Source: an uncultured Acidobacteriota bacterium
GTDB lineage: Bacteria > Acidobacteriota > Blastocatellia > RBC074
Length of the DNA stretch: 64,000 bases
Assembly (NCBI GenBank): GCA_963796275.1
Contig: CAWCKY010000006.1
Coordinates: forward strand, 320,001 to 384,000
Direction of reading: 5' to 3'
In this document: positions 1-57,071 of the stretch, piece by piece
Layout of the letters: each line of letters begins with the position of its first letter
Numbering within the stretch: position 1 is the stretch's first letter
The notes under the pieces: model-generated
The model's input: only the letters and a program-made list of their open reading frames with translations
What the model was told of the DNA's origin: nothing
Database searches by the model: none
Translations under genes and position numbers: made by a program

Positions 1-3000
1 CAGCCCGAGACCGATGGTATTAGTCATTCCACCGAAGCGGATATCGCTCACGAGCGGAAACACATTCCCGAGATCATAGAAGGGAACTACCCGGAATCGT
101 CGTGTCAGCGGGTAGCGCAGCTCGAAGTTGAAAATAGTGAGCGCATTGCCGCCGACAGCTACGAGCGCCGGCAGTTCACCTGGGAAGCGCGGCTCAAGAA
201 CAGCTTGCGGCCCGGCCTGCTCAAAGCGGAACCCGCGAAGCGTTGTCGCGCCTCCCGCAAAGAAACGCTCGCTGATCGGCAACAGCTTGTCATCAAATGT
301 TCCGGTCACCGTAACCTTGAAGGGATCCGCTAACCCGATGCGCACAGCGGCGGCAAGAACGGAATCGCGCAGTAACGGCGTCGATTGAGGGAGCGTCCGG
401 TAGTACTGGTAGTTGCCGAAGAATCTGTTGAAGGCCTCGTTCCCTCCGAGGCTGCGCGCAGCAATGGAATGATCGGCACTGAAGAGTTGTCCTCGTGTGG
501 GATTCAGCGCGCTGTCGCGCGTGTCGTGCGTGAAGCCGGCGGAGACAAGTCCTAAACGGATCGGGCGATCGTTCCGCCCGATCTCTGCAATGGGAATATT
601 CTGGACATTGGAGAGCCTCGAATCTTCATAGTTGTACCGGAACCGCACTGAGAAGATCTCAGAAAGCTTGCGCTCCGTTTGAATAAAGGCGACGTAGCGA
701 TTGATGCCATAGCTTTGCGTCGGCCCATTCTCAACCTCTCCGTCCACGATAACCTGCCTGACGATCGATTGCAGATCCGTGTTCCGGTCGTAGTAGGCCG
801 AGACGGTGGTCGCCCATCTGGTTTCGAACGGCCGAAGGTCAATGTAAGAAATTTGCCCGAATTGTTCGCGCCCGCTCACCCGCATTCGAGCGGAGGCGGT
901 ATTGACGCGCCCAAAGAGGTTGGTATTGGACAGTTGGACGAGCCCGCGCGGGCCGTCATCCGTTGAATATCCCGTGCCATAAACGAAGAGCAGCGGCTTC
1001 GCCTCCGTCACTCCCACCGTCACACGGCGCGCATTCGCATCATCGCCTCCCACGGGGTCAGTGCGAATGTTTATCTCGCGGAACGCCCCTGTGGCGTAGA
1101 GGTCGCGCTGAGTGCTGCGAATGACCTCGGGCGTGAGCGTATCGCCGGGTTTAAAGGGGAGGAATCGGCGGATCGAATCCTCACGCGTTTTAGTTTGGCC
1201 TGTTATGAGCACCTCGCTCGCCACGCTTCGGCTACCCTCGGTCACGTTATAGGTCACTCGCACGCGATCATCAGGCAAATTCATGAGATTTAGTTCGACG
1301 ATAGCAGCCAGATAGCCGCGATCCGTATAGAACTTCCTGATATTCTGCGTGCCCTGACGCAATTTGGTCACTGAGAAGGGGTCATCGTCCTTGATCGGAA
1401 CAGTCTCACGCAATGTGGAAGATGTGACGACCGCGTTGCCTTTGATCGCAACCCCTGAAATGATCGAACGCGGCCCCTCTTTCACATCGAAGATCACAAC
1501 CAGGTCGGCACTCTCCGCCTTGGTCGCCAATCGCGAATCGACGCGCGTGGAGCGGAAGCCCTGGTTGACCATACGGCGTCGAATGACCTCGCGGTCGTGT
1601 TGCAGGCGGTCGTCGCTCGTAATTCCGCGCGCATAGCCGCCGATCAATGGGAGTTTCCTGAGGAAAGGGATACCACCGAAGATGCTGGCCGTCTGCGATT
1701 GGAACTGCCCCCTGATATCGCCGAGGCTGATCCGGTCGGTTCCTTCAATGCGGATCTCCTTAATAGCGTGTCGTTGATCCGGTTGAACATTATAAATCAC
1801 GCGCAGGTTCGGGGCGCTGCAGTCTGCGGGCACGCACCTGTAACTCACAGTCGCAAAGAAATAACCCTGTTCCTGAAGATAATCTGTTAGATTGCGCTCC
1901 CCCAAACGGGCGAGTGACGGGCTGTAGCCGGACTTCTTGATGGGTAAAAGTTCGCGCAACTTTTTATCGTTCAGACGTACGTCTTCCGGTTTCTCAATCG
2001 ATACGTCGGCGGGTGGAAGAGGCGTTCGTGTGGGGCGCGAGGGTATTTTTGTCGAGGGGCGGCCTGTGCCTGCGGCACCCAAAGAACCACTTCCCAAATA
2101 GCCAAGCGAGTAACGCCTGCGACCGCGCATCTCGATCGCGAGGTCATTGTTGTTACTGCCACCTTGCGCCGAGTTGCTCCCCTGGGTGAATGACCCGACC
2201 ACGGAGAAGCGATTCGACACAGCATAGTCGAGAAGAACGGTCTGATCCTGCTCCGAGGCGAGGTTTGTCGAGTAGGTGAACGTGAGGTCGCGCGTGACCT
2301 GTTGGCCGATCGTTATACGCGCCGCCGGGTTGTCGTTAGGGCGCAGCACCGGATCGATCTGAAAGCGACTGATGCCAAGTAATGATTCGGTCGGCTTTGA
2401 GATGAGCTGCTGAGTGAGGAGCGATGCCGCCGTTCCCACACCCGAACGCGCCAATTCTTCACTCCCCAGATTGTCCGAGTCGGTGCGTCCGGTGGTGATC
2501 AGAGAGAGTACCTCTGACCGAGGCAAATCTGGCTCTGAACGCAGCGTCACATCCATATCGTTGAGCTGGCCGGCGAGACCGACATAAACGTGATGACCGC
2601 TCACATCGCCTTCGGCCATGGCGTTGATAACGGGAGTCATCCCGGCACCAATGGGAAATTCGACCGTACCGGTAGTAATGTCATAGCGTTGAGAGCGGAA
2701 CCTGACCGTGCCGCCTTCGAACGTTACGCGGCCGGTGATGCTGGGGTCATTGAGTCTGCCGCCGACGGTGAGCAAGGCTGTGCCGACAGTGTTGATCTGC
2801 GCGTTGTTTACGAAAAGCGATTCGTTCGCTTCAACACGCACGTCCAAACTCACAGGAGCGAGGCCGTAAGTCCTCCTCCTGCCGCCACCGCCTCCGAAAT
2901 CGAGACCGCCTTGCCTGGTTGCGGCCAGGCTCTCAAAATCGAAGTCGGTCGTATACTCAGCCTGCGGGATGGTGAGCTTACCGCTGAGCAATTGTCCTTG

Positions 3001-6000
3001 AGGAGTACCGGTCAGAGTAAGGTCGCCGTCGAGTATCACCTGAGCTCCCTGATAGAAGATAAGGATGCCACTGGCGTTGAGACCGAATCGCCATTCCTTC
3101 GGCTGAAACTGTGCGAGCGTGAGAGTGCCATTCGCGTTGATCTTTCCGTCGTTGGCACGCGCTGTAAAGCTCTCGAGGGTTACTTTATCCCCGGATAGAA
3201 GAATACGGCCGTTACCGTCTTCGATGTTGAATTGAGGATCGATGCTGGAGAAGGCGAGCCCGTTCATACTCACATCCCCGGCAAACCGCGGCTCGTTCGC
3301 TGATCCTTCTATTCTCGCATTGATCGTCAGAGTGCCGCTGAAGAATGAGTCGGGGTCCAATTCGCTGAGAGCATCGAGATTGGCCGTTCCATTCACTGCG
3401 AAATTCATCTTTGCATCCTCGCTCAAGGCGAGTGTGCCGCCGATGCTGAGATCGGCACCAGCACCGAAAACTCGTGTTCGCTGAAGCGTGAGTTGAGGCC
3501 CGTCGAGTGTGACTGTAAACGGCGTCTCGACATTTATCTTTCTTCCCGTGACCAGCAGCGAGATACCGGTAAACGTAAGGTTGCCGCGTAAACCATCGAG
3601 GGTTACCTCCCCTCGATCATTGACTGTCGGCCCGGCGACGCGGAGTCTACCGCCGATGACTCCATCGATCGAGGAAGCGAGATTGGGAGCAAATGCGGCG
3701 ATGAGAGGACCTAGATCCAAATCCGTAATATTGGTTTCGACTTCGATGGGGCGACTTGGCTTTCGCAGCTCAAAGTTCGCGCGCACCGTCTGCGGCGCGC
3801 CCGCGATGCCGGTGATCAGCTCAAGGTCAATGCGCCCGCTCTGACTCGTGCGCGCGGTAAGGGTGAGCTGGCCAGCCGGCTGTCCGTTGATCGTTACATC
3901 CTTTCCGCTAGCCGTTAATTCGATTTGCAGCTGGTCGAGGTCATTTGTGCTGCCGCTCGCTTGCAAGGTGGCTGTGGCCGTCCCGGTTATAATCGGATTC
4001 TCGACCTCGAGAGAGGTGAAGAGTACACCCAAATTGATGCTGTCAGCCTTCCCCTGCAATTGAAAGGTGTTTCTCTTCAGGTCGAGACTGCCATTCGCAA
4101 CGAGATGGCCTTGAGACAGGCGGACCTCGGCGCGGTCGATTCGTGCAGTCTGACCATCGAGAACCAGATTGGCCGTCGCCAGCTCGGCTGCCTGTCCGGC
4201 AATCACACCATCTACTAGATTGACGGTCACCGTTCCTTGAGGAGCCGCTGGCAAAGCTGTCAAGTGCGCCTGGCCCGAGATATCTCCGGAGATGAGCTTC
4301 TGCCCGATGGGAAGACCGGCGGCGGCGATCAAAGTATCTACTGGAATGCGATCGAGAGCGGCATCGAGCCGTCCTTCCGTGGCGAGCTTATTGCGCGGCG
4401 CCGCATAGCTGAATTTTACCGTCCCGTTATTGGCGGCGGTGAGCAGCCCATTATCTAAACGCACTTCCGCGGGAGAGAAGAGTAGATGGCCAGTGAGACT
4501 GCCCAGCAACTCATCGTGCAGCAAAATACTCGCAGCATTCAGATCTGCGTCGATCGTCGGATTTTTGATCGGTCCGGTGAGACGGCCTTCGAATTTGAGA
4601 TCGCCGACGAGCTGCGGTTCATACTCTGCGAGCGCCTTCCTCACCTCATCGACCGAATAGGCAATGGCCTGCAATTGCTCGGCGCTCGCCGAGTTGAGCG
4701 AGAAGCGCATATCTGATTCGCCCTCCTGCGAGAATCGCCCGGTAGCACTCAATCTCGTGGCGTCGGTATAGAGTGTGAATCGGTTAACCTCGAAGACGCC
4801 GCTGCTAGCCGTGATTCCCACATCCCCCTTGACCGGAATCGCGTCAGGAGTCTGTGTCGTGTCACCGCTCAGGTGGGCGGTAACCGTGCCGCTCGCCGCG
4901 AGCAGATCGATTCCGGGCCAACGAACATCTACTTTGCCCTCCACGACCCCTGCGAGAGGTGGTGGGCTTGTCGATACGAGAGTGAAAACGTCGCCCGTCT
5001 CGACCCCAGTGAAGCTCGCCTTCAGATGCGAGTTGCCACTGCGCCCCAGTTGCCCCGATTGCCCCGTTTGCCCTGTTTGAATTGAGATGTCACCGGCAGC
5101 GCTACCGCCGAAAAGGGAAGCCTTGAATTGGTTGAGCGCGATCTTATTGTTATCGGCAATCAGCTCTCCGTTCAGCGGGCCCAAAGAAGCGCCCCCTATG
5201 GCTCCGCTCTTGATCGCTAAATTCCCGCGCACCTGATAGATATCCTCTTCTACGCTGGCGGTCACTTTCTGCAGCGCGACCCCCGAAATCTGCCCCTGGG
5301 CAATTTCAATATGCTCGATGGATACCTGTGGCACCTCCCCACGTATGTGGCCATTAATCATCTCTCCCCGAATCGCGCCGGCTGACAAATTCGTCACTTT
5401 GGCGCCCTGCACACTCATAGCCTGGAAACGCGCTTGCTTGCTTCCAAAACTTAGCTTCTCACCGTCAGACGCAACGATGATTCCCTCTACCTTCGCGCCG
5501 CGTGCTCGAGCGCCGGCTGCCGTGAAATCGTCTGAGTCTAATTCACCAGTTATCCGATAGCGTGCGCCTTCCCCTTCGATCCGCCCGTCGAACCCGGCCG
5601 CACCCTGCAATCCGCTTCCTGGCTCGATGATCGCGACCTCATCCAGTGCTACGCGCGCTTGAAGGCTGAGTCTATAGCGCAACGCATCCCAATCATCGAT
5701 CCGTCCGACAGCTGATGCCTGAACGATCGGCGAGCGAAGCGTAAGACTCTCGACCTCCGCTCCGGCCTCTCCACCCCTAACGGCGAGTTGCAAGCCATCG
5801 ATACTCATCTCGCGATTTTGATAGCGAAAGCGGCCTCCACCGGTGGTCAACTGAGCCTTCACCATTGTGCCTCCCGGAAGGGGCTGGGCGTTCGCCTGCA
5901 AATTTTCCAGCTCGCCTACGATATTACGCGCTCGATCATTGATGTAGAGTGCTCCGCCATTCAGCGATCCGATGAGACTCGAAAAATCGAATGTGATTCG

Positions 6001-6471
6001 GCTGGGTGCGCTCGGAGGCGCCGGGCGTAAGCCATCCAGATTTGAACGACCCTGTTCGTCCACGTCGAGGCGGATGATGAGGTTGTTCAGATCGAGGCGA
6101 TTAAAGACGATTTCCCGGTGTAGACGCAGAGCGAAGGGATCGAGAATCTGGACGACCATTTCCGCGTGGTCGACCGTCGCGATCAGCTGTCCCGTCTGTT
6201 GATTGTAGATTTTAGTATCACTGATCTTTGCCGTCTGTCTTCTCCAGGCAATATCGAATTTTCCGATCTCTGTGCGCAGACCGTACTCTGCGAGTGCCTC
6301 AACAACCTGATTTGCAACGTAGCGATTGATCTTGCCAGAAGTGATGAAGTTGATGCCGGCAAGGACGAGGAGTGTAATGAGTAAAAGCGAACCGAGACCT
6401 ATGGCAAGCGCCAGTTTGTGTCTCGCGTACCAGTTTGGGCGTATAGATGGCGTCCCCTGTGTCGGGTCCAT
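1..6471 (-). CDS. TamB (AsmA-like/DUF490) - POTRA - Omp85 (TamA/BamA-like) fusion protein, running off the left window edge
   Basis: Manual translation of both ends and the domain junction. ATG at 6471 gives MDPTQGTPSIRPNWYARHKLALAIGLGSLLLITLLVLAG (N-terminal TM anchor). A TamB-like C-terminus (RFQIDP..ARITIGQQVTRDLTFTYSTNL) lies near 2270-2370, then POTRA repeats (QGYFFATV, RGYLAAIV) and Omp85 barrel motifs (ERFFAGGATTLRGF, FELRYP, FYDLGNV). Base 1 is in the same frame as the ATG and no stop was found across the junction. Missing from the ORF track because it has no stop in the window. Confidence 0.85.
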   Translation of the reverse strand, partial: MDPTQGTPSIRPNWYARHKLALAIGLGSLLLITLLVLAGINFITSGKINRYVANQVVEALAEYGLRTEIGKFDIAWRRQTAKISDTKIYNQQTGQLIATVDHAEMVVQILDPFALRLHREIVFNRLDLNNLIIRLDVDEQGRSNLDGLRPAPPSAPSRITFDFSSLIGSLNGGALYINDRARNIVGELENLQANAQPLPGGTMVKAQLTTGGGRFRYQNREMSIDGLQLAVRGGEAGAEVESLTLRSPIVQASAVGRIDDWDALRYRLSLQARVALDEVAIIEPGSGLQGAAGFDGRIEGEGARYRITGELDSDDFTAAGARARGAKVEGIIVASDGEKLSFGSKQARFQAMSVQGAKVTNLSAGAIRGEMINGHIRGEVPQVSIEHIEIAQGQISGVALQKVTASVEEDIYQVRGNLAIKSGAIGGASLGPLNGELIADNNKIALNQFKASLFGGSAAGDISIQTGQTGQSGQLGRSGNSHLKASFTGVETGDVFTLVSTSPPPLAGVVEGKVDVRWPGIDLLAASGTVTAHLSGDTTQTPDAIPVKGDVGITASSGVFEVNRFTLYTDATRLSATGRFSQEGESDMRFSLNSASAEQLQAIAYSVDEVRKALAEYEPQLVGDLKFEGRLTGPIKNPTIDADLNAASILLHDELLGSLTGHLLFSPAEVRLDNGLLTAANNGTVKFSYAAPRNKLATEGRLDAALDRIPVDTLIAAAGLPIGQKLISGDISGQAHLTALPAAPQGTVTVNLVDGVIAGQAAELATANLVLDGQTARIDRAEVRLSQGHLVANGSLDLKRNTFQLQGKADSINLGVLFTSLEVENPIITGTATATLQASGSTNDLDQLQIELTASGKDVTINGQPAGQLTLTARTSQSGRIDLELITGIAGAPQTVRANFELRKPSRPIEVETNITDLDLGPLIAAFAPNLASSIDGVIGGRLRVAGPTVNDRGEVTLDGLRGNLTFTGISLLVTGRKINVETPFTVTLDGPQLTLQRTRVFGAGADLSIGGTLALSEDAKMNFAVNGTANLDALSELDPDSFFSGTLTINARIEGSANEPRFAGDVSMNGLAFSSIDPQFNIEDGNGRILLSGDKVTLESFTARANDGKINANGTLTLAQFQPKEWRFGLNASGILIFYQGAQVILDGDLTLTGTPQGQLLSGKLTIPQAEYTTDFDFESLAATRQGGLDFGGGGGRRRTYGLAPVSLDVRVEANESLFVNNAQINTVGTALLTVGGRLNDPSITGRVTFEGGTVRFRSQRYDITTGTVEFPIGAGMTPVINAMAEGDVSGHHVYVGLAGQLNDMDVTLRSEPDLPRSEVLSLITTGRTDSDNLGSEELARSGVGTAASLLTQQLISKPTESLLGISRFQIDPVLRPNDNPAARITIGQQVTRDLTFTYSTNLASEQDQTVLLDYAVSNRFSVVGSFTQGSNSAQGGSNNNDLAIEMRGRRRYSLGYLGSGSLGAAGTGRPSTKIPSRPTRTPLPPADVSIEKPEDVRLNDKKLRELLPIKKSGYSPSLARLGERNLTDYLQEQGYFFATVSYRCVPADCSAPNLRVIYNVQPDQRHAIKEIRIEGTDRISLGDIRGQFQSQTASIFGGIPFLRKLPLIGGYARGITSDDRLQHDREVIRRRMVNQGFRSTRVDSRLATKAESADLVVIFDVKEGPRSIISGVAIKGNAVVTSSTLRETVPIKDDDPFSVTKLRQGTQNIRKFYTDRGYLAAIVELNLMNLPDDRVRVTYNVTEGSRSVASEVLITGQTKTREDSIRRFLPFKPGDTLTPEVIRSTQRDLYATGAFREINIRTDPVGGDDANARRVTVGVTEAKPLLFVYGTGYSTDDGPRGLVQLSNTNLFGRVNTASARMRVSGREQFGQISYIDLRPFETRWATTVSAYYDRNTDLQSIVRQVIVDGEVENGPTQSYGINRYVAFIQTERKLSEIFSVRFRYNYEDSRLSNVQNIPIAEIGRNDRPIRLGLVSAGFTHDTRDSALNPTRGQLFSADHSIAARSLGGNEAFNRFFGNYQYYRTLPQSTPLLRDSVLAAAVRIGLADPFKVTVTGTFDDKLLPISERFFAGGATTLRGFRFEQAGPQAVLEPRFPGELPALVAVGGNALTIFNFELRYPLTRRFRVVPFYDLGNVFPLVSDIRFGGMTNTIGLGL

Positions 6472-33541: not shown

Positions 33542-34768
33542 TCAACTCTCTCTGCGTTTCAATAGCGATTTTACCGACGCGATCGCGTTATCGAAAGCTT
33601 CCTTATCTTTCTGCGGGCTGCAATTCACTGCCCGATCGTCGATGAACGCCGCCGCGCGCGGTTTTCCCTGTCCGATATAAACATCCGTGTAGGGAATTTT
33701 GTGTTTCTCCAGCCAATCTATGATCTGGATCCGCATTTGCGCGGGCGAGAGTGAATAACCATCATCGCCGCGGCGCCGGTCCTCCGAGCAGCGCGAGCTG
33801 AAAATAATGATATCCGCAACTTTGGCCAGTTCGTGCGCAAACTCCAATGCGCCCGGAACAGGAGCGCCGATGTTCTCTGCTCCTCGCCATCGGTCGTATT
33901 TTGCCAGCACTCCATCCAGATCTACGCAGACACGCGGTTTCTGTTTCGGTACGGCTACTTTCGGTGAGGGCGCCGCATTCTTTATCGTGCCTTTTTTAGC
34001 GCTCTTTTTTATGCCCGGAAGCGGGGAAGGGCGTAAGGAAATCAATGCTTCAACGGCTTCGTCGCCTTCCAGCCACTCGCTTTCGCCCAGCGAATCGAAA
34101 TTCCAAACGCGCGTGTAATGATGATTGGTGTGATGCCGGCCGGGCAGCCGCAGGGCGTAAGGCAAATGGCCGGGCTCCACGTGAGCCTTCGGCGGAAACA
34201 CTTCGGGCCGTCGCGGAAGTCCGAACTCAGCCCAATCGTCGCGCAGCTCCGAAACGAAGGCGAAGACATCCGCCAGCGGATATTCGCGATCCAGCAGCGC
34301 CCACACGTGATAGCCCCCGGCGCCGCTGCTGTCCATCACGCATGGATCGATATATTTTTCGCGCAGCCGTCCAGCCCACGTCAGGCACGCCGCCAGATTA
34401 GCCGCCGCCATTTCATCGGCGTTTGCGACCGTCGGGTCGTGCAGATCGACGTCCACGGCCAACCATTTCGCGGTGTTGTGGTCGCTGATTGCATGTAAAC
34501 CGATCAGATGCGAGCGCGATCGCCCGGCAAAATGGCGCCGGAGTTTTTGCAGAGTCACCATGTCGGTGCCGAGCGCCCGGCGTTCGGGTATCGGCAGCAT
34601 TACGACGCCGATCTTGTCGCCGCGGAGCGTATATTGGCTCCACACGTCGCGGCGGTTGACCAGCCGCTCCATCGCCCATCGGGCCAGGTCATCAGCGCGC
34701 TCTTCCCATTCATGAGCGATCCAGAGCAGTCTCTTATTTCCGGCAAATTCGCTAAATGGTGCGGCCAT
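33542..34768 (-). CDS. AEP primase-polymerase (TOTE-primase-like) fused to a HAD phosphatase
   Basis: AEP motifs WLAVDVD, SSGAGGYHVW, EVFP and LRLPG. Lys/Pro-rich linker. HAD motifs VDLDGVLA, FSSR, KP and IDDR. Confidence 0.8.
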   Translation of the reverse strand: MAAPFSEFAGNKRLLWIAHEWEERADDLARWAMERLVNRRDVWSQYTLRGDKIGVVMLPIPERRALGTDMVTLQKLRRHFAGRSRSHLIGLHAISDHNTAKWLAVDVDLHDPTVANADEMAAANLAACLTWAGRLREKYIDPCVMDSSGAGGYHVWALLDREYPLADVFAFVSELRDDWAEFGLPRRPEVFPPKAHVEPGHLPYALRLPGRHHTNHHYTRVWNFDSLGESEWLEGDEAVEALISLRPSPLPGIKKSAKKGTIKNAAPSPKVAVPKQKPRVCVDLDGVLAKYDRWRGAENIGAPVPGALEFAHELAKVADIIIFSSRCSEDRRRGDDGYSLSPAQMRIQIIDWLEKHKIPYTDVYIGQGKPRAAAFIDDRAVNCSPQKDKEAFDNAIASVKSLLKRRES

Positions 34769-34771
34769 GAG

Positions 34772-36235
34772 TTATGTGACCTTCTCCCATCCACCGACAA
34801 AATTTTCGTCCGCCAGCCGCTGGAACCATTTACGAGCGGCCTTTTCTGTCTTGGCCACGCGGATCTCCCGTTCCAGCGGGTTCTGGCGATTCGGACTGAA
34901 ATCGGTTAGATAGACGACATAGCCGGGAAAATTAGACATACCCTCTTTATTGGTTTTCCACAAGAGAAGTTTCCTGACCATGCGCTGCCCCTTCATAACT
35001 TTGGTGTACACCACCCGCTCTATCAATTTACTTTCCGGCGCAAGCTCCTCGCGGGCGGATGTCTCGGCCTCCTCGACCAAGATGACCGCTTCGAGCTGGC
35101 GGATATTCACGTCCTCGACGTTGGCTTCTTTATCATCGCGCATCCGGACGAACTGCGGCGAGATAACGCTGGCGAGCGGCATCCGGGCGATTGATTGATA
35201 TTTTTCGCCATTCCATTCCAGCACCATTTTCTTGATCGGATCGCCTTTGGAACCTTCGGCGATCAAATCGAGCGCCGATATCTCTATCACCGGGCCCGGC
35301 TCAATCATTTCATATGCGACGTAATCGTTATTGACCGCGACGTAATCCGACGGCGCGACGCGGCGTTTCAACTGGCTGACGATATTTTTGCGGTCGTCAT
35401 CAGTGAAGCCGCCGCCGACGCGCGCGAATTCGTGAAATGTCCCGTCCTGGCGCATGACGGCGACCAGCAGATCGTGGAGCAATCCCTTGCGGTCATCGAT
35501 GCCTTCGGAGAAACCGATGATGGCGACATCGATGTTATGGCGTTCTTTGATCTTGTACCAGCCGGCTTGATCGTGACGAACCACGAGCCCTTCCGCGCCG
35601 CCCCCCGCTACCCACTCGTTGAAAAGCTCGCGAACCGCTTTCAGATCTTTGGCAACTTTATGCTCGGCCGGATGTACGAGTTTGCCTTTTTCGAACCAGC
35701 CGTCGAGCAGTTTGATGACATTCGCCGCCGCCGTAACCGGCTCATTGTCTATTTCGATAACGTCGAATACTGCCACGGAGAGCTTTTCCAACGCGGCTTC
35801 GGACGAGGGAGAACGCAGCGTGCTGCTGACCTGGTAAACCTTGTTCGCCTTCTTATTCCCGCTCGGCGCATATATCTCCGCCCCGAGCAGGCACGATCCG
35901 ACCTTCGCCTTTTTCAACAGTTTTTCTGCCTCCTCATAAGCGGGCAACCCGCCGCGCACGGTGCCGCGCGGATTTATTGAAAGCAGTTGGTTGCCGTCGA
36001 AGGCGAGCAGGACGAATTCGCCGTCGTATTTGCGCGAAACGTAATAACCGTTCGCAGGTAGTATGCGGGAAATGTCCTCGGATGAGAGAGGACGCATCAT
36101 CCCGCTCAGGCGGCGTTTGTATTCCTGCGCGCGCGCCTGGAGCGTCGGGTCCGCCAGCGCGTCGGCCACGCCGATGAAATAATCACCCTTTTTTCGAGTA
36201 AATCTCGAACGATCGAATTTCAGGTTGATAGCCAT
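34772..36235 (-). CDS. ATP-dependent DNA ligase with OB domain and C-terminal WGR-like domain
   Basis: Motif I KYDG, III GAEIY, IIIa VFDVI, IV EGLVVR, V WYKIK. OB fold (DVAIIGFSEG, RVGGGFTD) and motif VI PQFVRMRDDK. Confidence 0.85.
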   Translation of the reverse strand: MAINLKFDRSRFTRKKGDYFIGVADALADPTLQARAQEYKRRLSGMMRPLSSEDISRILPANGYYVSRKYDGEFVLLAFDGNQLLSINPRGTVRGGLPAYEEAEKLLKKAKVGSCLLGAEIYAPSGNKKANKVYQVSSTLRSPSSEAALEKLSVAVFDVIEIDNEPVTAAANVIKLLDGWFEKGKLVHPAEHKVAKDLKAVRELFNEWVAGGGAEGLVVRHDQAGWYKIKERHNIDVAIIGFSEGIDDRKGLLHDLLVAVMRQDGTFHEFARVGGGFTDDDRKNIVSQLKRRVAPSDYVAVNNDYVAYEMIEPGPVIEISALDLIAEGSKGDPIKKMVLEWNGEKYQSIARMPLASVISPQFVRMRDDKEANVEDVNIRQLEAVILVEEAETSAREELAPESKLIERVVYTKVMKGQRMVRKLLLWKTNKEGMSNFPGYVVYLTDFSPNRQNPLEREIRVAKTEKAARKWFQRLADENFVGGWEKVT

Positions 36236-36942
36236 CAGACCTCCTCGACCTTTTTCGGTATCTTCAATTCCATATTCGAAAGATGCAGGATCAAACAGTA
36301 AGCGTCACCATCGACGCGTCCTTCGAGAAAGGCGTTGTACGGTTTTCCCCCGCGATTGAAGATCAGCGGCTGGTTGCCCTTCTCGCCGCCGCGCAGCAGC
36401 AGGAGCGAATCTTTGTCGTGCAGCTCCTTCGCGATCTCATAAAGAAAATCATAGGTCAGCCCGTTGACGTGGATGAGCTGCTTTTTAGTGGCAAAAACGA
36501 ATTTTTTCACCGCCTCTTTTTTCTTCATGAATTTTCCGGTCCACTTGAGCGGCACGTCGCTGTTGACATTCTGCAGCTCTTTTTTGCGCGGGCGACGCTC
36601 GCGCACGCTTCCATCCGGTTGGTAAATCACTTCGAATTCTTCCACAAAGTGAACGATCCCCTTTTCGCTGACATAGACCCGCGATGTCTCGCCCAAAAAC
36701 ATGCCGAAATGTTCGATATCGATCTCCGGATCGCCCTCTACCAATTTTTTCCCCAGCTTTTCCAGGTCGCCGTCTTTTTTGGTGAGCGCTGACAGGTCGT
36801 GTACAACATCTGTCTTCAGCAGGCGGCGGTTTATTACCAGATTGCGGTCTTCATCGATGTAGTGGATATCGCGTCTCGGCCGCACCGCTTCCAGCGCAAC
36901 AGTCGCATCCCTGTTTTTTGCGTTGCTGATATTTATTGCCAT
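36235..36942 (-). CDS. hypothetical protein, putative divergent Ku-like subunit B
   Basis: Clean ORF coupled to the ligase by a TGATG overlap. FVFATKKQL..LYEIAKELHDKD..FNRGGKPYNAFL..CLILHL resembles the Ku core by eye. Confidence 0.55.
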   Translation of the reverse strand: MAINISNAKNRDATVALEAVRPRRDIHYIDEDRNLVINRRLLKTDVVHDLSALTKKDGDLEKLGKKLVEGDPEIDIEHFGMFLGETSRVYVSEKGIVHFVEEFEVIYQPDGSVRERRPRKKELQNVNSDVPLKWTGKFMKKKEAVKKFVFATKKQLIHVNGLTYDFLYEIAKELHDKDSLLLLRGGEKGNQPLIFNRGGKPYNAFLEGRVDGDAYCLILHLSNMELKIPKKVEEV

Positions 36943-36954
36943 AACTTTTCTCCA

Positions 36955-37566
36955 TCAAAACAGATCGAATTCTATCTCTTCGCCCGAAATCTCTTGCTCC
37001 TCGACCGGTTCGAGCACGCTAGGTTGATTGAGCTTCACGAACTGGAGAGTAGTGTTGGATCCGATGATCATGAAAACGGCTTTCTCATTTCCGACCAGAA
37101 ACGCCGTGTCGTATTCCAGCCCGCCGCGGTAGCTGAAATCGAATTTATAGATCGAGTTGCCGGACCGAACGTCATCGAGAATCGCGAAATCGGAACCTTC
37201 GGGCGGCGTCAGGAGATAGACGGATTTTACGGTATGCGAGAGATATTCATCGATGGTGGATTCATAAAGCAGATTCGGCGCGCTGAATGACGACGGAACT
37301 GGTTCGACTTCATCCCCGTCGGAGGTAATAGGAATAAGTTTTTTGCGGTCTACTGAATTGCCGTCCACATCAAGCGAGGCCAGCGATGTGCCGCCCGTAT
37401 CGATCAGCGTCTTACCATCCACATCCAGTATTTGCAGAAAAGCCCTGTTGCCTTCTTCGTCAAAAGCTTCAATCTCGATATTGCCGTAAAGTTTATCCCG
37501 GTCGATTTTTTGCATCTGAACCGGAAAATCTTCTCCGTCCAAGGAAAGTACCAGCGACCGCGCCAT
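36955..37566 (-). CDS. hypothetical protein, putative divergent Ku-like subunit A
   Basis: AAGGAG RBS. MARS..FPVQ start, DGNSVDRKKL, and VYLLTP..FSYRGGLEYDTAFL resemble the Ku core by eye. Acidic tail ending EIEFDLF. Confidence 0.55.
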   Translation of the reverse strand: MARSLVLSLDGEDFPVQMQKIDRDKLYGNIEIEAFDEEGNRAFLQILDVDGKTLIDTGGTSLASLDVDGNSVDRKKLIPITSDGDEVEPVPSSFSAPNLLYESTIDEYLSHTVKSVYLLTPPEGSDFAILDDVRSGNSIYKFDFSYRGGLEYDTAFLVGNEKAVFMIIGSNTTLQFVKLNQPSVLEPVEEQEISGEEIEFDLF

Positions 37567-37853
37567 TTATGCTCCTTTACTTCTTTAACACATGTTGTAA
37601 TTCGATGTCTTATGAGGATAAATCTCAGAGTCTTTATCTTCAAGGATGCAATACGGACATCTATACCTATTTCGTTTAGATTTTTGCGTGATGTAAATCT
37701 ATATCGTAGTTAATTGGTTGGAACCGGATTCTCTGCAGAGGGTGCCGGGTTGTACTGGAGCAGCAGCAGACATGAAGTAGCTAGCGGCTGTCGTGTGTGC
37801 ACTTTGAAACCCTTCCAATAAGTTTCTCATTCGATGTCGTCATTTATATCCTA

Positions 37854-38237
37854 TCAAGGCACAAGTCCAATAATATGTTCAGCAAGCTTGAGGAAGTCTT
37901 CGGCACGGGTCAATTGTTCCGTAGCATCATTTTCGGTAAGCCCTGATTGCACGTCGTAATCGCCAACATTGCGTAGCTGTTCGCTTTCAATCAAATAACG
38001 GTGATACTCGGCGGGCACGCGTCCGGTCTTTGCAAAATGCTGCCCGAAAGCCGCGATCACAGCTGAGTGTTTTGAAAAAGACAATCCTTCACCTGATAGA
38101 AATGCCTGGGTGACATAAAACATCGCATAATATGCGCGGGATATGGAGAAATCGTAATACTTTTAATTTGCCAACAACCGAGCAGCATCGATACTCGAAT
38201 AGGCTTTTCGCAGGAGCGCCTCTTGCTCCGAAGTCAT
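37854..38237 (-). pseudogene. HEPN domain toxin with premature TAA at codon 25
   Basis: MTSEQEALLRKAYSSIDAARLLAN*KYYDFSISRAYYAMFY..SKHSAVIAAFG..RNVGDY. TAA at 38163-38165. ATGA overlap with the MNT gene. Confidence 0.85.
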
Positions 38238-38554
38238 ACAGCTACACCCTCTCGCCGGACATTGCGAAGTAGAGGACTCTGTTCATGGCTATATCGCTCT
38301 GTTGGCATAAACAGGCATGAGATGATGACATCATATTTGAGTGATAATTGAGAGACGACGCCGCCAGTGCGATGGATTTCCTCTCCAGGACTCAATTTCC
38401 CATTGAGAACAATGAGCACATCGATGTCTGACCCGAGCTGAGCGTCGCCGCGAGCTTGCGACCCATAAAGAATAGCCTGTTCGAGGCGCTCTCCGTAAAT
38501 ACCCTCCAGCGCCTGACGCAGATCATTCAGAATTGTAGATAGCCGTTCGTTCAT
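38234..38554 (-). CDS. minimal nucleotidyltransferase (MNT) antitoxin
   Basis: LYGSQARGDAQLGSDIDVLIV motif. Directly upstream of the HEPN gene. Confidence 0.9.
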   Translation of the reverse strand: MNERLSTILNDLRQALEGIYGERLEQAILYGSQARGDAQLGSDIDVLIVLNGKLSPGEEIHRTGGVVSQLSLKYDVIISCLFMPTERYSHEQSPLLRNVRREGVAV

Positions 38555-38679: not shown

Positions 38680-41359
38680 TCATTCGGTTCGTAAAGCCGT
38701 TATCGGGTCAACCTTTGTCGCCCGCCGTGCCGGTAGGTAACATGCGATTAGTGACACGATCAGCAGACCGAACGCGACAATACCGAATGTTATCGGGTCC
38801 GAGGGGTTGATCTGGTAAAGCTGGCTAGCCAGCAAGCGTACCAACCCGAAGGCGCCGACCATTCCTATGCCTACACCGACAAATGCCGGTCGCATTCCCT
38901 GGCGGATGACCTGCGCCAGCACATTTTGCCGCTGCGCCCCCAGCGCCATGCGTATGCCGATCTCGCGCGACCGCTGGCTGACTCCATAGGTAACCACGCC
39001 ATACAACCCCATAACGGTCAGCAGGAGCGCAGCTGTCGCGAAGAGACCGAGCAACAATGTGCTGAAGCGCGGCCGCGCCGTCGCCTTCACCACGAGTTCG
39101 GGCATCGTACGGTAGTTGGCCACAGGGAGCGATGTATCAAGTTGCTTGAGCTCTCTCTGAATCGCGTTGCGCAGTGAAGGCAGCGCTGTTGCATCGGCGC
39201 GCACCGTCATCGCCATCACGTCATACGGATCCTCTGAATGAGGATGATAGAGTTGTGGACGCGCCGGCACCTCAAGTGAGAACCCCCGCACGTCGTGCAC
39301 GACGCCGACAATCGTTCTCCAGTCTCTGTCGCCGCCAAATACCCGTTTGATGCGTTTACCAACGGCATCGCCCGCGGGGAAGAACTTCCGCGCCAGGGTC
39401 TCGTTAACAATAGCGACAGGTGGTTTGTCTATCGTGTCTGTCACATCGAAGTCGCGCCCACTCACGAGATTTATTCGCATGGCTTCAAAATAACCGGGGG
39501 TGATCACGCGGTTTTCCGCCAGCGGTTCCTTGCCTTGCGGTACTCGCTCCGCGCCTTCGACTGCAAAATAGGTCATATCTTCATAACCACCCAGAGGCAA
39601 ATTGGAGATCGCCCCGACCGCAAGCACTCCAGGCAAACTGCTCAATCGCGTGCGCGCCTGCTCGACGAATTGCGCTCGCTGTCCGCCATCCGGATAGAGC
39701 GCGCGTGTCAGCGTTAACTCGAAAGTGGCGACACCCTCCGGTCTGAATCCCGGGTTGACTGCTATAAGCTTCTGAAAACTCTGGAACATCAGGACGGCGC
39801 CGACTAACAGAACAGCGGCGAGCGCAACTTCGGCGGTTACCAGCAAACTATGGCCCCTGTTGTGTCCCGCGGAGTTTGCACGCCCGGCATTCTTGAGCGC
39901 TTCAGTAAGATTCAGCTTCGATGCCTGGATGATGGGAACCAGGCCGAACAGTATGCCGGTTAGGAGAGAGATCGATGCGGTGAAGAGAAAGACATTAGTA
40001 TCCAATGAGATGTTCTGTAAGCGCGGCACAGTAGGTGGGATGAAGCCTAGCACGAGATCCAATCCACAGTAGCCGAGCAGCAATCCGAAGCTGCCGCCAA
40101 GCGTAGCCAAGAGCAGGCTTTCGGTTAACAACTGCTGGATGATACGCGCGCGCCCTGCGCCGATAGCGGCGCGGACAGCCATTTCGCGGCGTCTTGCAGC
40201 GGCGCGTGCCAGCAGGAGGCTTGCGATGTTGGCGCATGCGATCAAAAGAAGGAAGCCAACCGAACCGAGTAGAACCAGAAGTGGCGTGCGCGTCTCGCCG
40301 ACCATCTGATTGAAGAGCGGCGTCAACCAGACACGCCAACCCTCGTGAGTTTGTGGATAATCTCTAGCCTGCCGCACTGCGATGCCGTCAATCTCGGCTT
40401 GCGCCTGCGCCTGGGTGACGCCCTTTTTCAGCCGTCCGACCAGGTTGAAAAATCTTCGCACTCGATTCTGCCAGCTGCCTGGCGTCCCAGGCCAGCGGTG
40501 TCCAAACATCGGTCTTTTCCGGCAGGTTGTAAACAGGCGGCATCTCATTCGCTCGCGGAAAATGAAAACCTTCGGGCATTATGCCGATGATTCTGCGTGG
40601 CACCCCATCGATTTTGATAGTTTTACCGAGTATCTCCAGGTCACCACCGAATCGCCGCTGCCAGAGGGCGTAACTGATGATCGCGACACGGTCCTGGCCC
40701 GGTTGCTCTTCTTCGGTTGAAATATTGCGGCCGAGGAGCGGTTGGACGCCGAGTGTCGGCAGCAGATTCGCTGTCACGTCAACCCCACCGACGCGCTCAG
40801 ATTCGCTGCTGTTATCAGATAAACCGGCGGTATTGGACTGGAACGCAGCAATCTCTTCAAAGCTGTTGGCGCTCGCGCGCCACTCGGGCAAATCTGCGTT
40901 GGCAGGCGGGAGTTCGTGAAAACCGAGTTGCCAGGCTGGATTGTCGGTCCAAAGCATGAAGAGACGATCCGGCTCATGGAATGCCAGTGGTCTCAGCAAA
41001 ACTCCGTTGATGACGCTGAAAATCGCCGTATTCGCGCCGATGCCGAGCGCAAGGGTAAGCGTCGCCACCAAAGCGAATCCAGGATTTTTCATCAGCGTTC
41101 GTGCGCCGTAGCGGAGATCTTGCACCAAATCATCGAGCCATTTCAGGCCGCGCGCATCGCGGCTCCGGTCTTTGGCCTGTTCGACTCCGCCGAAGGCGCT
41201 ACGGGCGGCGAGGCGAGCCTCTTCTGGATTCATACCCAGACGGAGATTTTGCTCTGTCTGTCGATCTATATGGTGTTGCAGTTCATCAGCCAATTCCTGC
41301 TCGGCTTGTGATTTTCTGAACAGCGCCCGTAATGCCGTCATCAATTTGTTGGTAAGCAT
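38680..41359 (-). pseudogene. ADOP-type duplicated ABC permease (MacB/FtsX domains) with a +1 frameshift
   Basis: [66 protein letters not shown]. One extra base near 40480 (TGG GAC GCC A GGC AGC TGG) splits ORFs 40388-41359 and 38680-40548. Confidence 0.88.
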
Positions 41360-54096: not shown

Positions 54097-54299
54097 GATA
54101 AAAATGCGAAAAAGCGAAAAACCCGACTGACAGCCGTTAATTAATGCCGTGAGATTCTCATCGTACTTTTAATTTTCTCGCAACTTTCTTTTTTGAAACC
54201 GGCATGATGGCAATCATGTCTGGGCAAGTGGTATTACCTGATTTATAATCGCGGTTCCAAACACAATACAATAAATTGATGCAGCCGGGAGGCGTGACG

Positions 54300-57071
54300 A
54301 TGTTGAAGAGTAGTCTACTCTGGAAAACTCCTATCAGATCGATTATCACGATTGTCTTCATCTTATTCGTATCGACGCTGCAATTTACGCAGACAGCCTC
54401 GATGCAACAGAAGGAGCCATCGCGCGAAGGGGTGGAGTTCTTCGAAAAGAAGATACGCCCTGTGCTCGCCGACAGCTGTTACGCGTGCCACAGTGCGAAG
54501 GCCAAAAAGCCGCAGGGCGGATTGCTGCTCGATTCTATTGATTCAATGCTCAAAGGCGGCGCATCAGGTCAGCCCTCCATTGTTCCGGGCGATCCCGACA
54601 AGAGCCTTCTCATCAAAGCCATCCGTTACACCGACCCTAAATTACAAATGCCCTTCGGCGGCAAGTTGCCTGATCAAGTTATCAAGGATTTTGAAGAGTG
54701 GGTGAAGATGGGCGCGCCCGCTCCGCGCGGCGATGCAACGGTTGCGGCGAACCGGCCCGCCTACAATTTCGACGAAGCTAAAAAATTCTGGTCCTACCGA
54801 CCGATCGCGGATCACCAGCCGCCGGCGGTGAAAAATCAGACCTGGGTAAAGACTCCCATCGATCATTTCATCCTCGCAAAGCTCGAAGAGAAAAAATTGA
54901 AGCCGGTTGGCGACGCGGATAAGCGGACTTTGATTCGCCGCGCGACCTTCGACTTAACGGGCCTGCCTCCGTCTCCTGAGGAGATCGAAAAGTTTTTGAC
55001 TGACAAATCGCCGAACGCTTTCGAGAAGGTCATCGACCGCCTGCTGGCTTCCCCGGCTTACGGCGAGAGGTGGGGCAGGCACTGGCTCGATCTGGTGCGT
55101 TACGCAGATACGGCCGGAGATAATTCGGACTATCCTGTGCCGGCTGCCTATCGTTACCGCAACTATGTCATCGAATCGTTCAATAAAGACAAGCCATACG
55201 ACCAGTTCATCCGCGAACAGATCGCCGGCGATATTCTCGCAAGTCATCGCAGCCCGCTAGTAGATGGGAATCTCCCTGACGGCGAGGAAGACGAAGATGC
55301 TGCGGAGAAGAGAACGACTGCGGAAGAGCTGGAAAAGTCGCGCCAGGAAAAGATCATCGCTACCGGATACCTCGCCATGTCGCGCCGCTTCGGTTCGCGC
55401 AACAAGGAGATGAATTTGACGATCGATGACACGATCGATAATCTCGGCAAGACGTTTCTCGGCCTCAGCACAAGCTGCGCGCGCTGTCACGACCACAAGT
55501 TCGATCCGATCCCGCAGCGCGACTATTACGCGCTCTACGGCATGTTCAATAGCATCCGCTACTCGTTTCCGGGAGCAGAGATCTATCCGCATCCGGCTGA
55601 GATGGTCGCGCTCGGCTCCGGCGATGAAGCAGCGAGATTTTACAAGGTACAGAAGGAGTTGGAATCTCTCGACGATCGCGTAGAGTTCCTGAAAGTGGAG
55701 AGAGGGGCGGCCGCGCGCAACAAAAAGATGAGGGAAGATCAGGCTAAGAAGGAAGCGCAGGCAAAAGAAGCGGGAGCGAAGGGCGAGGCTAGAAGCGACA
55801 ATGAGAGTGGCGCGCAATCCGATGAAAAAGCGAAGACAAAGGTTGTCGAGCCGAAAGGCGAGACCAGGTCGGCCGATTACGACCGCGACAGCCATAACTC
55901 TTCGAGTGCGCAGAAGTCGAAGCGTATGCCGGAAGATGTTGAAGCCGAGAACAAGGCAGTCAGAGCGCGCATCGCCGAGCTGCATGCGCGTTACCTCAAG
56001 GCCCCGAAAGCTTATGCGGTGGTCGAGGGGCAGGTGGCGAATGCTCATATTCACCGGAAAGGGGACCCGAAGAACCTGGGTGAAAAAGCCCCACGGGGAT
56101 TCCTCACCATTCTCGGTGGCCAGCAGGTCCCGAAAGATCACGATGGCAGCGGGCGCGAACTGCTCGCCGATTGGATCGCTGACGCCAAGAACCCGTTGAC
56201 GGCTCGCGTAATGGCCAACCGGATATGGCAATATCATTTCGGCGCAGGCATTGTGCCGACGTCCAACGACTTCGGCTCGCGCGGGCGCGCCCCGACGCAT
56301 CCTGAACTGCTCGACTATCTGGCTACCCGCTTCATCGAGGGCGGCTGGTCGATGAAGAAGATGCACCGGATGATCATGCTCTCGCGCGTCTACCAGCTTG
56401 ACAGCGGAGAAGAGAGGCCGGGGGATATAAAGCGCGCAGATTTGCGGGCCCGACTTTTCGCTGGCAATTCTGCGATCGATGTAAGCAACGATTACTTATG
56501 GCGATTCAACCGCCGCCGTTTGTCCGCCGAAGAGGTCCGCGATTCGATGCTTTCGACCAGCGGCCAGCTCGACACCACGATGGGCGGGGAGCACCCATTC
56601 CCGTCGGAGACGACCTGGCGCTTCAGCCAGCACGTTCAGTTCTTCGGCGTTTACGACGCTAACCGCAGAAGCATTTATCTCATGCAGCAGCGATTGAAGA
56701 AGCACCCGTTTTTTGAGGTTTTTGACGGAGCTGACACGAATATGACGGTTGGCGAACGACCGCTTAGCACGACGCCGCTGCAGGCGCTCTACCTGATGAA
56801 CAATCCGTTCGTCCACGAGCAGGCAGATCAGTTCGCCCTGCGTGTCGGCATGGCCTACGATACGATGCCGGAACGGGTGGATTACGCATTCCAGCTGGCT
56901 TACGGGCGTTCGGCTAAGCCTGAAGAAGTCAGAGAGGCGATAGCATATATTAAAAAGACGAAGTTGAATTTACAGACGCTGAATATTCCTCGGGAAAAAT
57001 ATACTCGTATGGCCTTGGCGAGTTATTGCCGGGTGTTGTTAAGCAGTAATGAGTTTTTGTATGTAGATTAG
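54300..57071 (+). CDS. planctomycete-type cytochrome c + DUF1549 + DUF1553 (PSD1) protein
   Basis: FFEKKIRPVL, CYACH, YGERWGRHWLD, CARCHDHKFDP and TARVMANRIW motifs. GGAGG before ATG 54300. Confidence 0.92.
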   Translation: MLKSSLLWKTPIRSIITIVFILFVSTLQFTQTASMQQKEPSREGVEFFEKKIRPVLADSCYACHSAKAKKPQGGLLLDSIDSMLKGGASGQPSIVPGDPDKSLLIKAIRYTDPKLQMPFGGKLPDQVIKDFEEWVKMGAPAPRGDATVAANRPAYNFDEAKKFWSYRPIADHQPPAVKNQTWVKTPIDHFILAKLEEKKLKPVGDADKRTLIRRATFDLTGLPPSPEEIEKFLTDKSPNAFEKVIDRLLASPAYGERWGRHWLDLVRYADTAGDNSDYPVPAAYRYRNYVIESFNKDKPYDQFIREQIAGDILASHRSPLVDGNLPDGEEDEDAAEKRTTAEELEKSRQEKIIATGYLAMSRRFGSRNKEMNLTIDDTIDNLGKTFLGLSTSCARCHDHKFDPIPQRDYYALYGMFNSIRYSFPGAEIYPHPAEMVALGSGDEAARFYKVQKELESLDDRVEFLKVERGAAARNKKMREDQAKKEAQAKEAGAKGEARSDNESGAQSDEKAKTKVVEPKGETRSADYDRDSHNSSSAQKSKRMPEDVEAENKAVRARIAELHARYLKAPKAYAVVEGQVANAHIHRKGDPKNLGEKAPRGFLTILGGQQVPKDHDGSGRELLADWIADAKNPLTARVMANRIWQYHFGAGIVPTSNDFGSRGRAPTHPELLDYLATRFIEGGWSMKKMHRMIMLSRVYQLDSGEERPGDIKRADLRARLFAGNSAIDVSNDYLWRFNRRRLSAEEVRDSMLSTSGQLDTTMGGEHPFPSETTWRFSQHVQFFGVYDANRRSIYLMQQRLKKHPFFEVFDGADTNMTVGERPLSTTPLQALYLMNNPFVHEQADQFALRVGMAYDTMPERVDYAFQLAYGRSAKPEEVREAIAYIKKTKLNLQTLNIPREKYTRMALASYCRVLLSSNEFLYVD

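Follow-up and report, generated by a model that had tools for sequence, protein, structure and literature searches.

We describe a four-gene operon from an uncultured Acidobacteriota bacterium that, on the basis of structure predictions and gene linkage, is probably a self-contained DNA-end repair module of the type known as non-homologous end joining (NHEJ), built from non-orthologous parts around a heterodimeric Ku-like clamp. The operon lies in a 64-kb stretch of the GenBank assembly GCA_963796275.1 (contig CAWCKY010000006.1, positions 320,001 to 384,000, or G000:C6:320001-384000 in our numbering), which is called the window below; the host genome measures 9.46 Mb in 7 contigs and is 94.7% complete with 5.2% contamination. 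All four genes are on the reverse strand and encode Ku-like subunit A (P0001; 36955..37566; 203 aa, acidic, isoelectric point (pI) 4.09), Ku-like subunit B (P0002; 36235..36942; 235 aa, basic, pI 8.73), an ATP-dependent DNA ligase (P0003; 34772..36235; 487 aa) and a protein in which an AEP primase-polymerase is fused to a HAD phosphatase (P0004; 33542..34768; 408 aa). According to the open reading frame (ORF) calls they are separated by 12 bp, a 1-bp overlap of the ATGA start/stop type and 3 bp, exactly the gaps of 12, -1 and 3 bp between four co-oriented genes reported in a preliminary description of this DNA, and this tight packing suggests that they are co-translated. The same description had interpreted the operon as an NHEJ-type system assembled from different parts, a reading that the folds of the small proteins and the co-occurrence of the genes now support.

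Two small proteins with a predicted Ku-like fold

P0001 and P0002 have 516 and 3211 homologues, respectively, at E<=1e-3, and wherever an organism is named it is Acidobacteriota, Blastocatellia, Pyrinomonadaceae or Chloracidobacterium. Both proteins are well conserved across these homologues, with a mean column identity of 71-74% in the alignments, which indicates that they are real genes. Neither belongs to a family in Pfam, NCBIfam, PHROGs or PADLOC; Pfam returned sub-threshold noise, and NCBIfam one sub-threshold match for P0002.

AlphaFold2 models were built from 44-sequence alignments, and the model of P0001 was of fair quality, with a predicted local distance difference test (pLDDT) value of 71. 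When this model was compared with the PDB using Foldseek, all seven matches at E<=1e-3 were bacterial Ku proteins, namely B. subtilis 9vnq (9vnq_A being the best, at 1.2e-5 with TMq 0.45), 8v53, and M. tuberculosis 9i91/9ig8, and the further matches listed were all Ku70/80-containing entries. The P0002 model gave 26 PDB matches at E<=1e-3, and those among the matches listed were all Ku entries, the best being 8v53_B (5.8e-5, TMq 0.36). Against BFVD, P0001 had only two matches at E<=1e-3, a mycobacteriophage Ku and a protein labeled 'COG1273 Ku-homolog'. The Foldseek alignments to Ku were nearly full-length (195-240 columns). The models thus indicate that both small proteins adopt a Ku-core-like fold, with moderate likeness, and the Ku-like label of the preliminary description stands, as every significant fold match listed for either protein was to Ku.

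Two conserved elements stand out in these subunits. P0002 carries a basic patch, R114-E-R-R-P-R-K-K121, that is invariant or nearly so, and the acidic C-terminal tail of P0001 ends in F-D-L-F, with F200 invariant and D201 and L202 nearly invariant. This tail recalls the C-terminal recruitment tail of SSB and, by analogy, we infer that it is a docking motif. Two other identities that surfaced for subunit B were set aside. Sliding-clamp leads for P0002 in the ESM Atlas (0.85 and 0.84) fell below the 0.9 threshold and were treated as chance, the other clusters being unnamed, and the JGI label 'ribosomal protein S24E' on several subunit-B homologues is an automatic mislabel that no library searched supports.

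Predicted pairing of the two subunits

A complex prediction for subunits A and B as a heterodimer scored 0.74 (0.72, 0.76, and 0.74 in individual runs), compared with 0.00 for the best of three controls. Of 80 solved complexes, 58 attain this mark, as do 2 of 110 mismatched pairs; these counts hold only roughly here because the alignments were built for this analysis. At least 44% of the contacts were in agreement between runs, with a partner pLDDT of at least 56, and the predicted interface comprised 301-348 contacts, with residues 61-87 of P0001 against residues 20-41 of P0002. Such a contact pattern and such a very large interface are what intertwined Ku bridges or arms would give, and the prediction supports the pairing of A and B as a heterodimer through this interface.

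Conservation and co-occurrence of the gene set

In a pattern scan covering 185,579 species-level genomes, at least 599 stretches were recovered, 593 of them confirmed as subunit-B relatives, so that the family is carried by at least 593 species-level genomes. The best 80 of these stretches, on which the locus counts below are based, are labeled as Acidobacteriota lineages, save one labeled Acidisarcina, and the gene order A-B-ligase-(AEP-HAD) is kept in them. Among loci with enough flanking sequence, subunit A was found in 72 of 72 (at least 1 kb upstream), the ligase in 66 of 67 (at least 1.7 kb downstream), the AEP-HAD gene in 43 of 50 (at least 5 kb downstream), and the complete set of four in 38 of 45.

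The linkage was also strict in a sample of 301 genomes drawn evenly from the phylum. With a ligase threshold of E<=1e-20, the subunit A profile, the subunit B profile, and the ligase were detected in the identical six genomes, always adjacent to one another; the orientation of the subunit A gene is divergent in one genus (g25). Strong matches to P0004 occurred in five of the six carriers, and weak, partial ones in four other genomes. The co-occurrence of the genes, on which the earlier interpretation depended, is therefore borne out both by the loci with the complete set and by this trio. The sixth carrier (G297), which belongs to another class, encodes A, B, and ligase proteins with 31%, 37%, and 32% identity to those of the window, in the same order and without AEP-HAD. 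Since the trio is kept in this genome, A, B, and the ligase form the core of the system; AEP-HAD is a frequent accessory, absent beside the trio in 7/50 loci and in G297. The G297 trio is divergent from an adjoining recC gene (L096:4541-7801, reverse strand; Exonuc_V_gamma, 1.3e-69) and a 1115-aa ORF (L096:1231-4578, reverse strand), a neighborhood of double-strand-break repair that was seen once.

In some loci, the ligase and AEP-HAD genes are separated by gaps of 0.6-1.4 kb holding inserts that resemble small toxin-antitoxin pairs, so that the operon appears to serve as a place where modules of this kind insert. Examples are L019:7275-7869, L022:6066-6622, L024:2353-3008, and L081:6485-7131, whose putative PIN/VapBC and DUF433-like identities were read from N-terminal sequences.

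The subunit-B family extends beyond these close relatives. When a broadened hidden Markov model was searched against 1.84 billion representatives, the number of clusters matched (defined at 50% identity) was 552 at E<=1e-3, falling to 392 at 1e-10 and to 148 at 1e-30, and the distant members with a name come from Planctomycetota and Sandaracinaceae. Some of these relatives are long forms (P0295, P0291, and P0245) that append a PAAKK-repeat tail similar to histone H1/HC2 (Pfam HC2, 7.7e-16) or else a SAM domain at the C-terminus. Canonical bacterial Ku proteins are known for C-terminal tails rich in lysine. By analogy, the tails and SAM domains of the distant subunit-B relatives may be a DNA-binding parallel to Ku, and we counted them in favor of an end-joining role. 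The accessible parts of two publications, PMC4889933 and PMC9638933, have the Ku C-terminus as their subject. Six metagenome loci found with P0295 (L099-L104) were discarded, as they matched its low-complexity AKKPAAKK tail and none was relevant.

Relation to canonical Ku and LigD

In the textbook view, NHEJ in bacteria has two components, homodimeric Ku and LigD, and its phyletic distribution has been inferred from the genes for these. The Pfam Ku family (PF02735) has no match in the whole host genome. In the 301-genome sample, it was found in 110 of the 295 non-carriers, including three genomes flagged as unpublished (G044, G167, and G068), and in none of the six carriers. A further 15 carriers reached via their loci also lack it, which brings the total to 0/21 carriers. 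In one family (f3), Ku is present in 5/16 genomes and the new module in 4/16, in different genera and without overlap.

LigD-type enzymes follow a different pattern. The host genome encodes a 537-aa fusion of a LigD-type 3'-phosphoesterase (PE) and Prim-Pol (L105:3452-5065, reverse strand; PF13298 and PF21686), divergent from a 543-aa three-domain ligase of the Lig1/LigB type (L105:5486-7117, forward strand). Both genes lie at about G000:C6 240.4-244.1 kb, about 113 kb from the operon. The LigD Prim-Pol domain was also detected in three of ten other carriers tested, and these LigD-type enzymes, which have no Ku beside them, may act by themselves or borrow the new clamp. The operon proteins themselves match neither PF21686 nor PF13298; P0004 matches the AEP-TOTE and HAD families.

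The ligase and its C-terminal domain

P0003 consists of a basic N-terminal stretch of 60 aa (pI 10.3), a nucleotidyltransferase (NTase) plus OB core at residues ~60-385, and a basic C-terminal domain of ~90 residues (pI ~9.5). Two Pfam domains are matched over their cut-offs, DNA_ligase_A_M (PF01068; 3.1e-10, 40.5 bits) and DNA_ligase_A_C (PF04679; 9.5e-9, 36 bits), and the protein also matches phrog_114 (1.3e-20). The best NCBIfam match is TIGR02779, NHEJ_ligase_lig (2.8e-12), but at 46.5 bits against a cut-off of 227.75, and the nearest solved chains are catalytic cores of archaeal and eukaryotic Lig1-type enzymes, such as 3rr5 (5.7e-10). The motif residues are K69-Y-D-G-E, E120, E215-G, K228-x-K230, and R364..D-K369, sets that we take to be motifs I-VI. 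Among 71 homologues, including some that are only 32-44% identical, at least 97% retain K69, D71, G72, E73, E120, E215, G216, K228, K230, R364, and K369, in agreement with the ATP-dependent ligase with all motifs reported previously.

The C-terminal domain (residues ~395-487; 34775..35053, reverse strand; pI 9.47) had been labeled WGR in the preliminary description. An extra domain is indeed there and is as strongly conserved as the core among the 71 homologues, but the WGR label was not confirmed. Pfam WGR (PF05406) matched none of ten ligase C-termini at E<=10 and nothing anywhere in the host genome, and an ESM Atlas search with residues 385-487 recovered ligase-OB clusters only, with no WGR. 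Profile-profile comparison was suggestive: an alignment of 71 C-terminal domains, including those of divergent loci, matched ten bona fide WGR domains from related genomes with an hhalign score of 24.7 (P=4.1e-4, probability 34.7%, 56 columns), compared with 9.3 for the reversed target and 17.0 for the highest of 20 column shuffles. An earlier, narrower alignment had given a probability of 9.9%. In this register, S-G-R or P-N-R stands opposite the Y-G-R of WGR and the terminal K-K-G-W opposite K-K-G-Y. The identification of the domain as a WGR, possibly a degenerate one, is plausible but unproven.

The AEP-HAD protein

The AEP domain of P0004 occupies residues 1-245 (34034..34768, reverse strand) and is joined by a Lys/Pro-rich linker (residues 246-278, pI 11.5) to a HAD domain at residues 279-408 (33545..33934, reverse strand). 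Residues 70-179 match Pfam AEP-TOTE (PF22548) at 6.6e-7, with 29.6 bits for a cut-off of 27; the AEP part also matches NCBIfam PrimPol_Msp, 'CRISPR-associated primase-polymerase type A1' (6.9e-5), and PDB 7nqf/7nqd (6.5e-3). The HAD part (residues 279-384) matches PDB 1xpj (4.7e-4), TIGR01689 (2.4e-6, below cut-off), and phrog_1238 (3.3e-13). Conserved in 56 homologues are D106, D108, and H154 of the AEP and D283-L-D285, S324, K369, and D377-D378 of the HAD, so that the fusion of an AEP to a HAD phosphatase, as first described, holds.

Its two finer labels need qualification. The AEP had been called TOTE-like, and AEP-TOTE is its nearest Pfam AEP model. TOTE stands for TPR, OB, TBP, and Effector in the accessible part of PMC12458937. 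Membership in a TOTE conflict system was rejected, because the partner genes TPR-CSD, OB, and TBP are absent from the operon and its neighborhood and the name of the AEP model alone is in common. The HAD had been called PNKP-like, after the 3'-phosphatases of which T4 Pnkp and mammalian PNKP are examples. Its HAD motifs are present, and like those enzymes it is a cap-less DxD HAD tied to nucleic-acid end repair, but the relation to PNKP depends on a weak match to phrog_415 'polynucleotide kinase' (3.7e-6), weaker than its matches to TIGR01689, 1xpj, and phrog_1238; unlike PNKP, P0004 has no kinase domain, and its best matches are in the small 1xpj/TIGR01689 HAD family. At ~120 residues, the HAD part has no room for a cap, and cap-less members tend to act on macromolecular substrates, which fits a DNA-end phosphatase without proving it. 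A second, partial HAD copy is found at G000:C4:116784-117280, 71-80% identical to P0004 residues 243-408 over two matches with a TAG inside the second, and may be a decayed duplicate.

A proposed mechanism and its relation to known systems

Taken together, these predictions allow a pathway to be proposed. The A/B heterodimer would form an asymmetric ring, similar to Ku70/80, that threads onto a broken DNA end. The clamp would then recruit the ligase, possibly through binding of the F-D-L-F tail of subunit A to the basic WGR-like C-terminal domain of that enzyme. The HAD domain would remove blocking 3'-phosphates, the AEP would fill gaps or add nucleotides, and the ligase would seal the ends. 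The module would substitute for canonical Ku-LigD in lineages devoid of Ku, and its patchy spread would be the result of horizontal transfer.

In this arrangement, as in NHEJ by Ku and LigD, the latter having POL, PE, and LIG domains, a Ku-fold end binder is linked genetically with an ATP-dependent ligase, a polymerase of the AEP superfamily, and a phosphoesterase function that heals 3' ends. However, the operon has two different Ku-like subunits that are invisible to Pfam Ku instead of one homodimeric Ku, its AEP is from another clade (AEP-TOTE/PrimPol, not PF21686), a HAD replaces the PE domain PF13298, its ligase falls far below the NHEJ ligase cut-off, and the enzymes are split differently, with the ligase alone and the AEP fused to the HAD. 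A parallel for the clamp is eukaryotic Ku70/Ku80, also a heterodimer of diverged Ku-fold subunits, as A and B are predicted to be obligately, and eukaryotic Ku chains are among the fold matches. Unlike Ku70 and Ku80, the operon subunits are of bacterial size, lack vWA and Ku80 C-terminal domains, and have no detectable sequence similarity to each other or to Ku70/80; the asymmetry of the A/B pair probably arose independently. In the archaeon Methanocella paludicola, NHEJ is reportedly split among separate Ku, Lig, Pol, and PE genes, with a canonical Ku and LigD-type Pol and PE. The operon is similar in having separate operonic genes in place of a single LigD polypeptide, but each of its four components is either non-orthologous or highly diverged. 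Two phage proteins, Mu Gam and mycobacteriophage Ku, are homodimers. They resemble A and B as small, single-domain Ku-fold end binders, and phage Ku proteins were the only significant BFVD matches of P0001, but they are phage-borne, whereas searches of phage, plasmid, and IMG/VR collections did not recover the operon family.

For the ligase, the closest description is that of an uncharacterized cluster of NT-OB-WGR accessory ligases in delta-proteobacteria and Planctomycetia (Williamson & Leiros 2020, PMC7470946). These also have a minimal NTase and OB core with a small C-terminal addition, and the subunit-B family occurs in the same phyla (Planctomycetota, Sandaracinaceae); in contrast, Pfam WGR misses the C-terminus of the operon ligase, and the accessible part of that paper describes no Ku-like partners. 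The combination had not been recognized as a described system at the outset, and full-text literature searches, with subscription journals and supplements outside their reach, turned up no description of a bacterial Ku that is heterodimeric or invisible to Pfam and is accompanied by this ligase and an AEP-HAD. No such system is described in the accessible parts of PMC12458937, PMC7470946, PMC10140301, PMC11936186, and PMC8455567; the network supplements of PMC7470946 and PMC10140301 may list the ligase cluster.

A broader proposal has, in our view, an even chance of being correct. It holds that the A/B pair represents a second bacterial Ku lineage that sequence comparison does not recognize, an obligate heterodimer and an independent counterpart of Ku70/80, which nucleates NHEJ with a ligase, a polymerase, and an end-healing enzyme non-orthologous to LigD. 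In hundreds of acidobacterial soil species it would take the place of Ku-LigD, and it would have relatives among Myxococcota and Planctomycetota. If this is true, bacteria possess a clamp of two different Ku-like proteins, as animals and plants do, in place of the one-subunit clamp known from them, and the Ku ring can turn asymmetric outside eukaryotes. Lineages now scored as lacking NHEJ would have this capacity, and surveys by the presence of Ku and LigD would have miscounted the end-joining bacteria. A function would also be given to an uncharacterized class of accessory ligases with a C-terminal addition, and genome engineering in NHEJ-free hosts would gain a compact, four-gene end-joining kit.

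Distribution and alternative explanations

Several observations weigh against an end-joining module with a Ku-like clamp. PF02735 matches neither P0001 nor P0002 even at E<=1, their profiles retrieve noise and no Ku from the PDB sequences at E<=10, and hhalign detects no similarity between the subunit A and subunit B families (probability 0.6%). For P0002 the model is of low confidence (pLDDT 53.5), and the template modeling (TM) scores against Ku are only 0.35-0.45, a moderate likeness, although values below 0.5 are expected for monomer models since the Ku arms are ordered only in the dimer. The complex score may partly mirror likeness to solved Ku dimers rather than true binding. The complementarity with Ku is no statistical test because the carriers are close kin, and the separate LigD-type protein and ligase of the host mean that the module is not its only end-processing kit. 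Finally, the module is patchy (6/301 genomes in the phylum, 2/7 in one genus), none of the 86 other genomes of the window's own family carries it, including both of its genus, and toxin-antitoxin pairs lie beside or inside the operon, all of which would fit an accessory or conflict role too.

The doubts about the fold raise the possibility that neither small protein forms a Ku-like ring, the matches to Ku being artefacts of low-confidence, beta-rich models, and that the role of the two proteins is that of ligase or polymerase accessory subunits or of a clamp-like factor. The low pLDDT of P0002, TM-scores of at most 0.45, the missing sequence-profile link to Ku, and the weak sliding-clamp leads of the ESM Atlas would all agree with this. 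However, the significant matches listed for two independent models of unrelated sequences were exclusively to Ku, in two libraries and over 195-240 columns, and the predicted interface is of the size that intertwined Ku arms would have, which makes artefactual matches very improbable. It is also quite improbable that the operon serves the excision repair of nicks, gaps, or abasic sites in the manner of LigC/Prim-PolC instead of the repair of two-ended breaks, with the Ku-like pair sensing lesions or nicks or acting as an apurinic/apyrimidinic (AP) or deoxyribose phosphate (dRP) lyase. WGR domains in PARPs sense nicks, and a HAD 3'-phosphatase suits the healing of single-strand breaks, both of which speak for such a role; on the other hand, the loading of Ku-fold rings requires a free end, and end binding is indicated by two observations, namely that the ligase is strictly linked to a pair of Ku-like genes and that the module is complementary to canonical Ku. 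An AEP with a stand-alone ligase does resemble the mycobacterial LigC complex, which has this composition in the accessible part of PMC5663958.

A third alternative is a function in conflict or in a mobile element instead of chromosomal repair. The module would protect or re-join DNA after attack by phage-defense, restriction, or toxin nucleases, or cap ends as Gam does, with the ligase and AEP serving the element. Relatives of P0001 and P0002 that are 85-98% identical exist in other assemblies, and together with their absence from the other 86 genomes of the family this makes horizontal acquisition by the host genome the simplest reading of the sequences. A search of 15 kb of DNA against five genomes of the same family gave, among the matches listed, none inside the operon; the flanks matched scattered paralogues, and no insertion site was defined. 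This patchy, horizontal-looking distribution, the HEPN/MNT pair directly upstream, the toxin-antitoxin-like pairs between ligase and AEP-HAD in several loci, and the origin of the nearest AEP models in conflict systems (AEP-TOTE and CRISPR-associated PrimPol) are all in favor of a conflict role. Against it, no PADLOC family matched the operon proteins at a meaningful E-value, tblastn against 72,556 plasmids and 50,697 phage records gave no match, and none of 14 pattern matches in IMG/VR was confirmed. In addition, the window contains no tRNA genes, the neighbors that were scanned encode ordinary membrane, transport, and peptidase proteins, none of which belongs to a mobile-element family, and a mean column identity as high as that of the small proteins is unusual for arms-race genes. 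We therefore consider a conflict role unlikely and retain the end-joining module as the preferred interpretation.

Genomic context of the operon

An AAGGAG ribosome-binding site precedes P0001. Farther upstream, a TTGAAG-17 nt-TATCCT block (37615..37643, reverse strand) is a weak candidate for the promoter of subunit A; it is also present in the four closest loci (L005-L008), and a scan for the sigma-70 consensus reported nothing upstream of this gene. No 8-mer was common to more than 8 of the 77 upstream regions of related loci, and these regions accordingly have neither a conserved operator nor a LexA-type box.

The operon is followed by a gene for a CarboxypepD_reg/OMP beta-barrel protein and preceded by a HEPN/nucleotidyltransferase pair and then by FtsX/MacB permease ORFs; farther out are a giant TamB-POTRA-Omp85 ORF, transporters, M17 peptidases, and an MscS channel. 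These flanking genes are ordinary chromosomal ones. The HEPN (89 aa) and nucleotidyltransferase (106 aa) genes, directly upstream of the operon at 37854-38554 (reverse strand), form a toxin-antitoxin-like pair. The two ORFs with MacB_PCD/FtsX parts, at 38680-40548 and 40388-41359 (both reverse strand), overlap by 161 bp and may be a frameshifted or split gene for an FtsX-family permease. At 1-6471 (reverse strand), an ORF of at least 2157 aa that continues past the window joins AsmA/TamB, POTRA, and Omp85 in one frame, as a TamB-TamA-like fusion. A 931-aa protein encoded at 54276-57071 (forward strand) combines PSCyt1, PSCyt2, and PSD1 (DUF1549/DUF1553), an architecture named after Planctomycetes.

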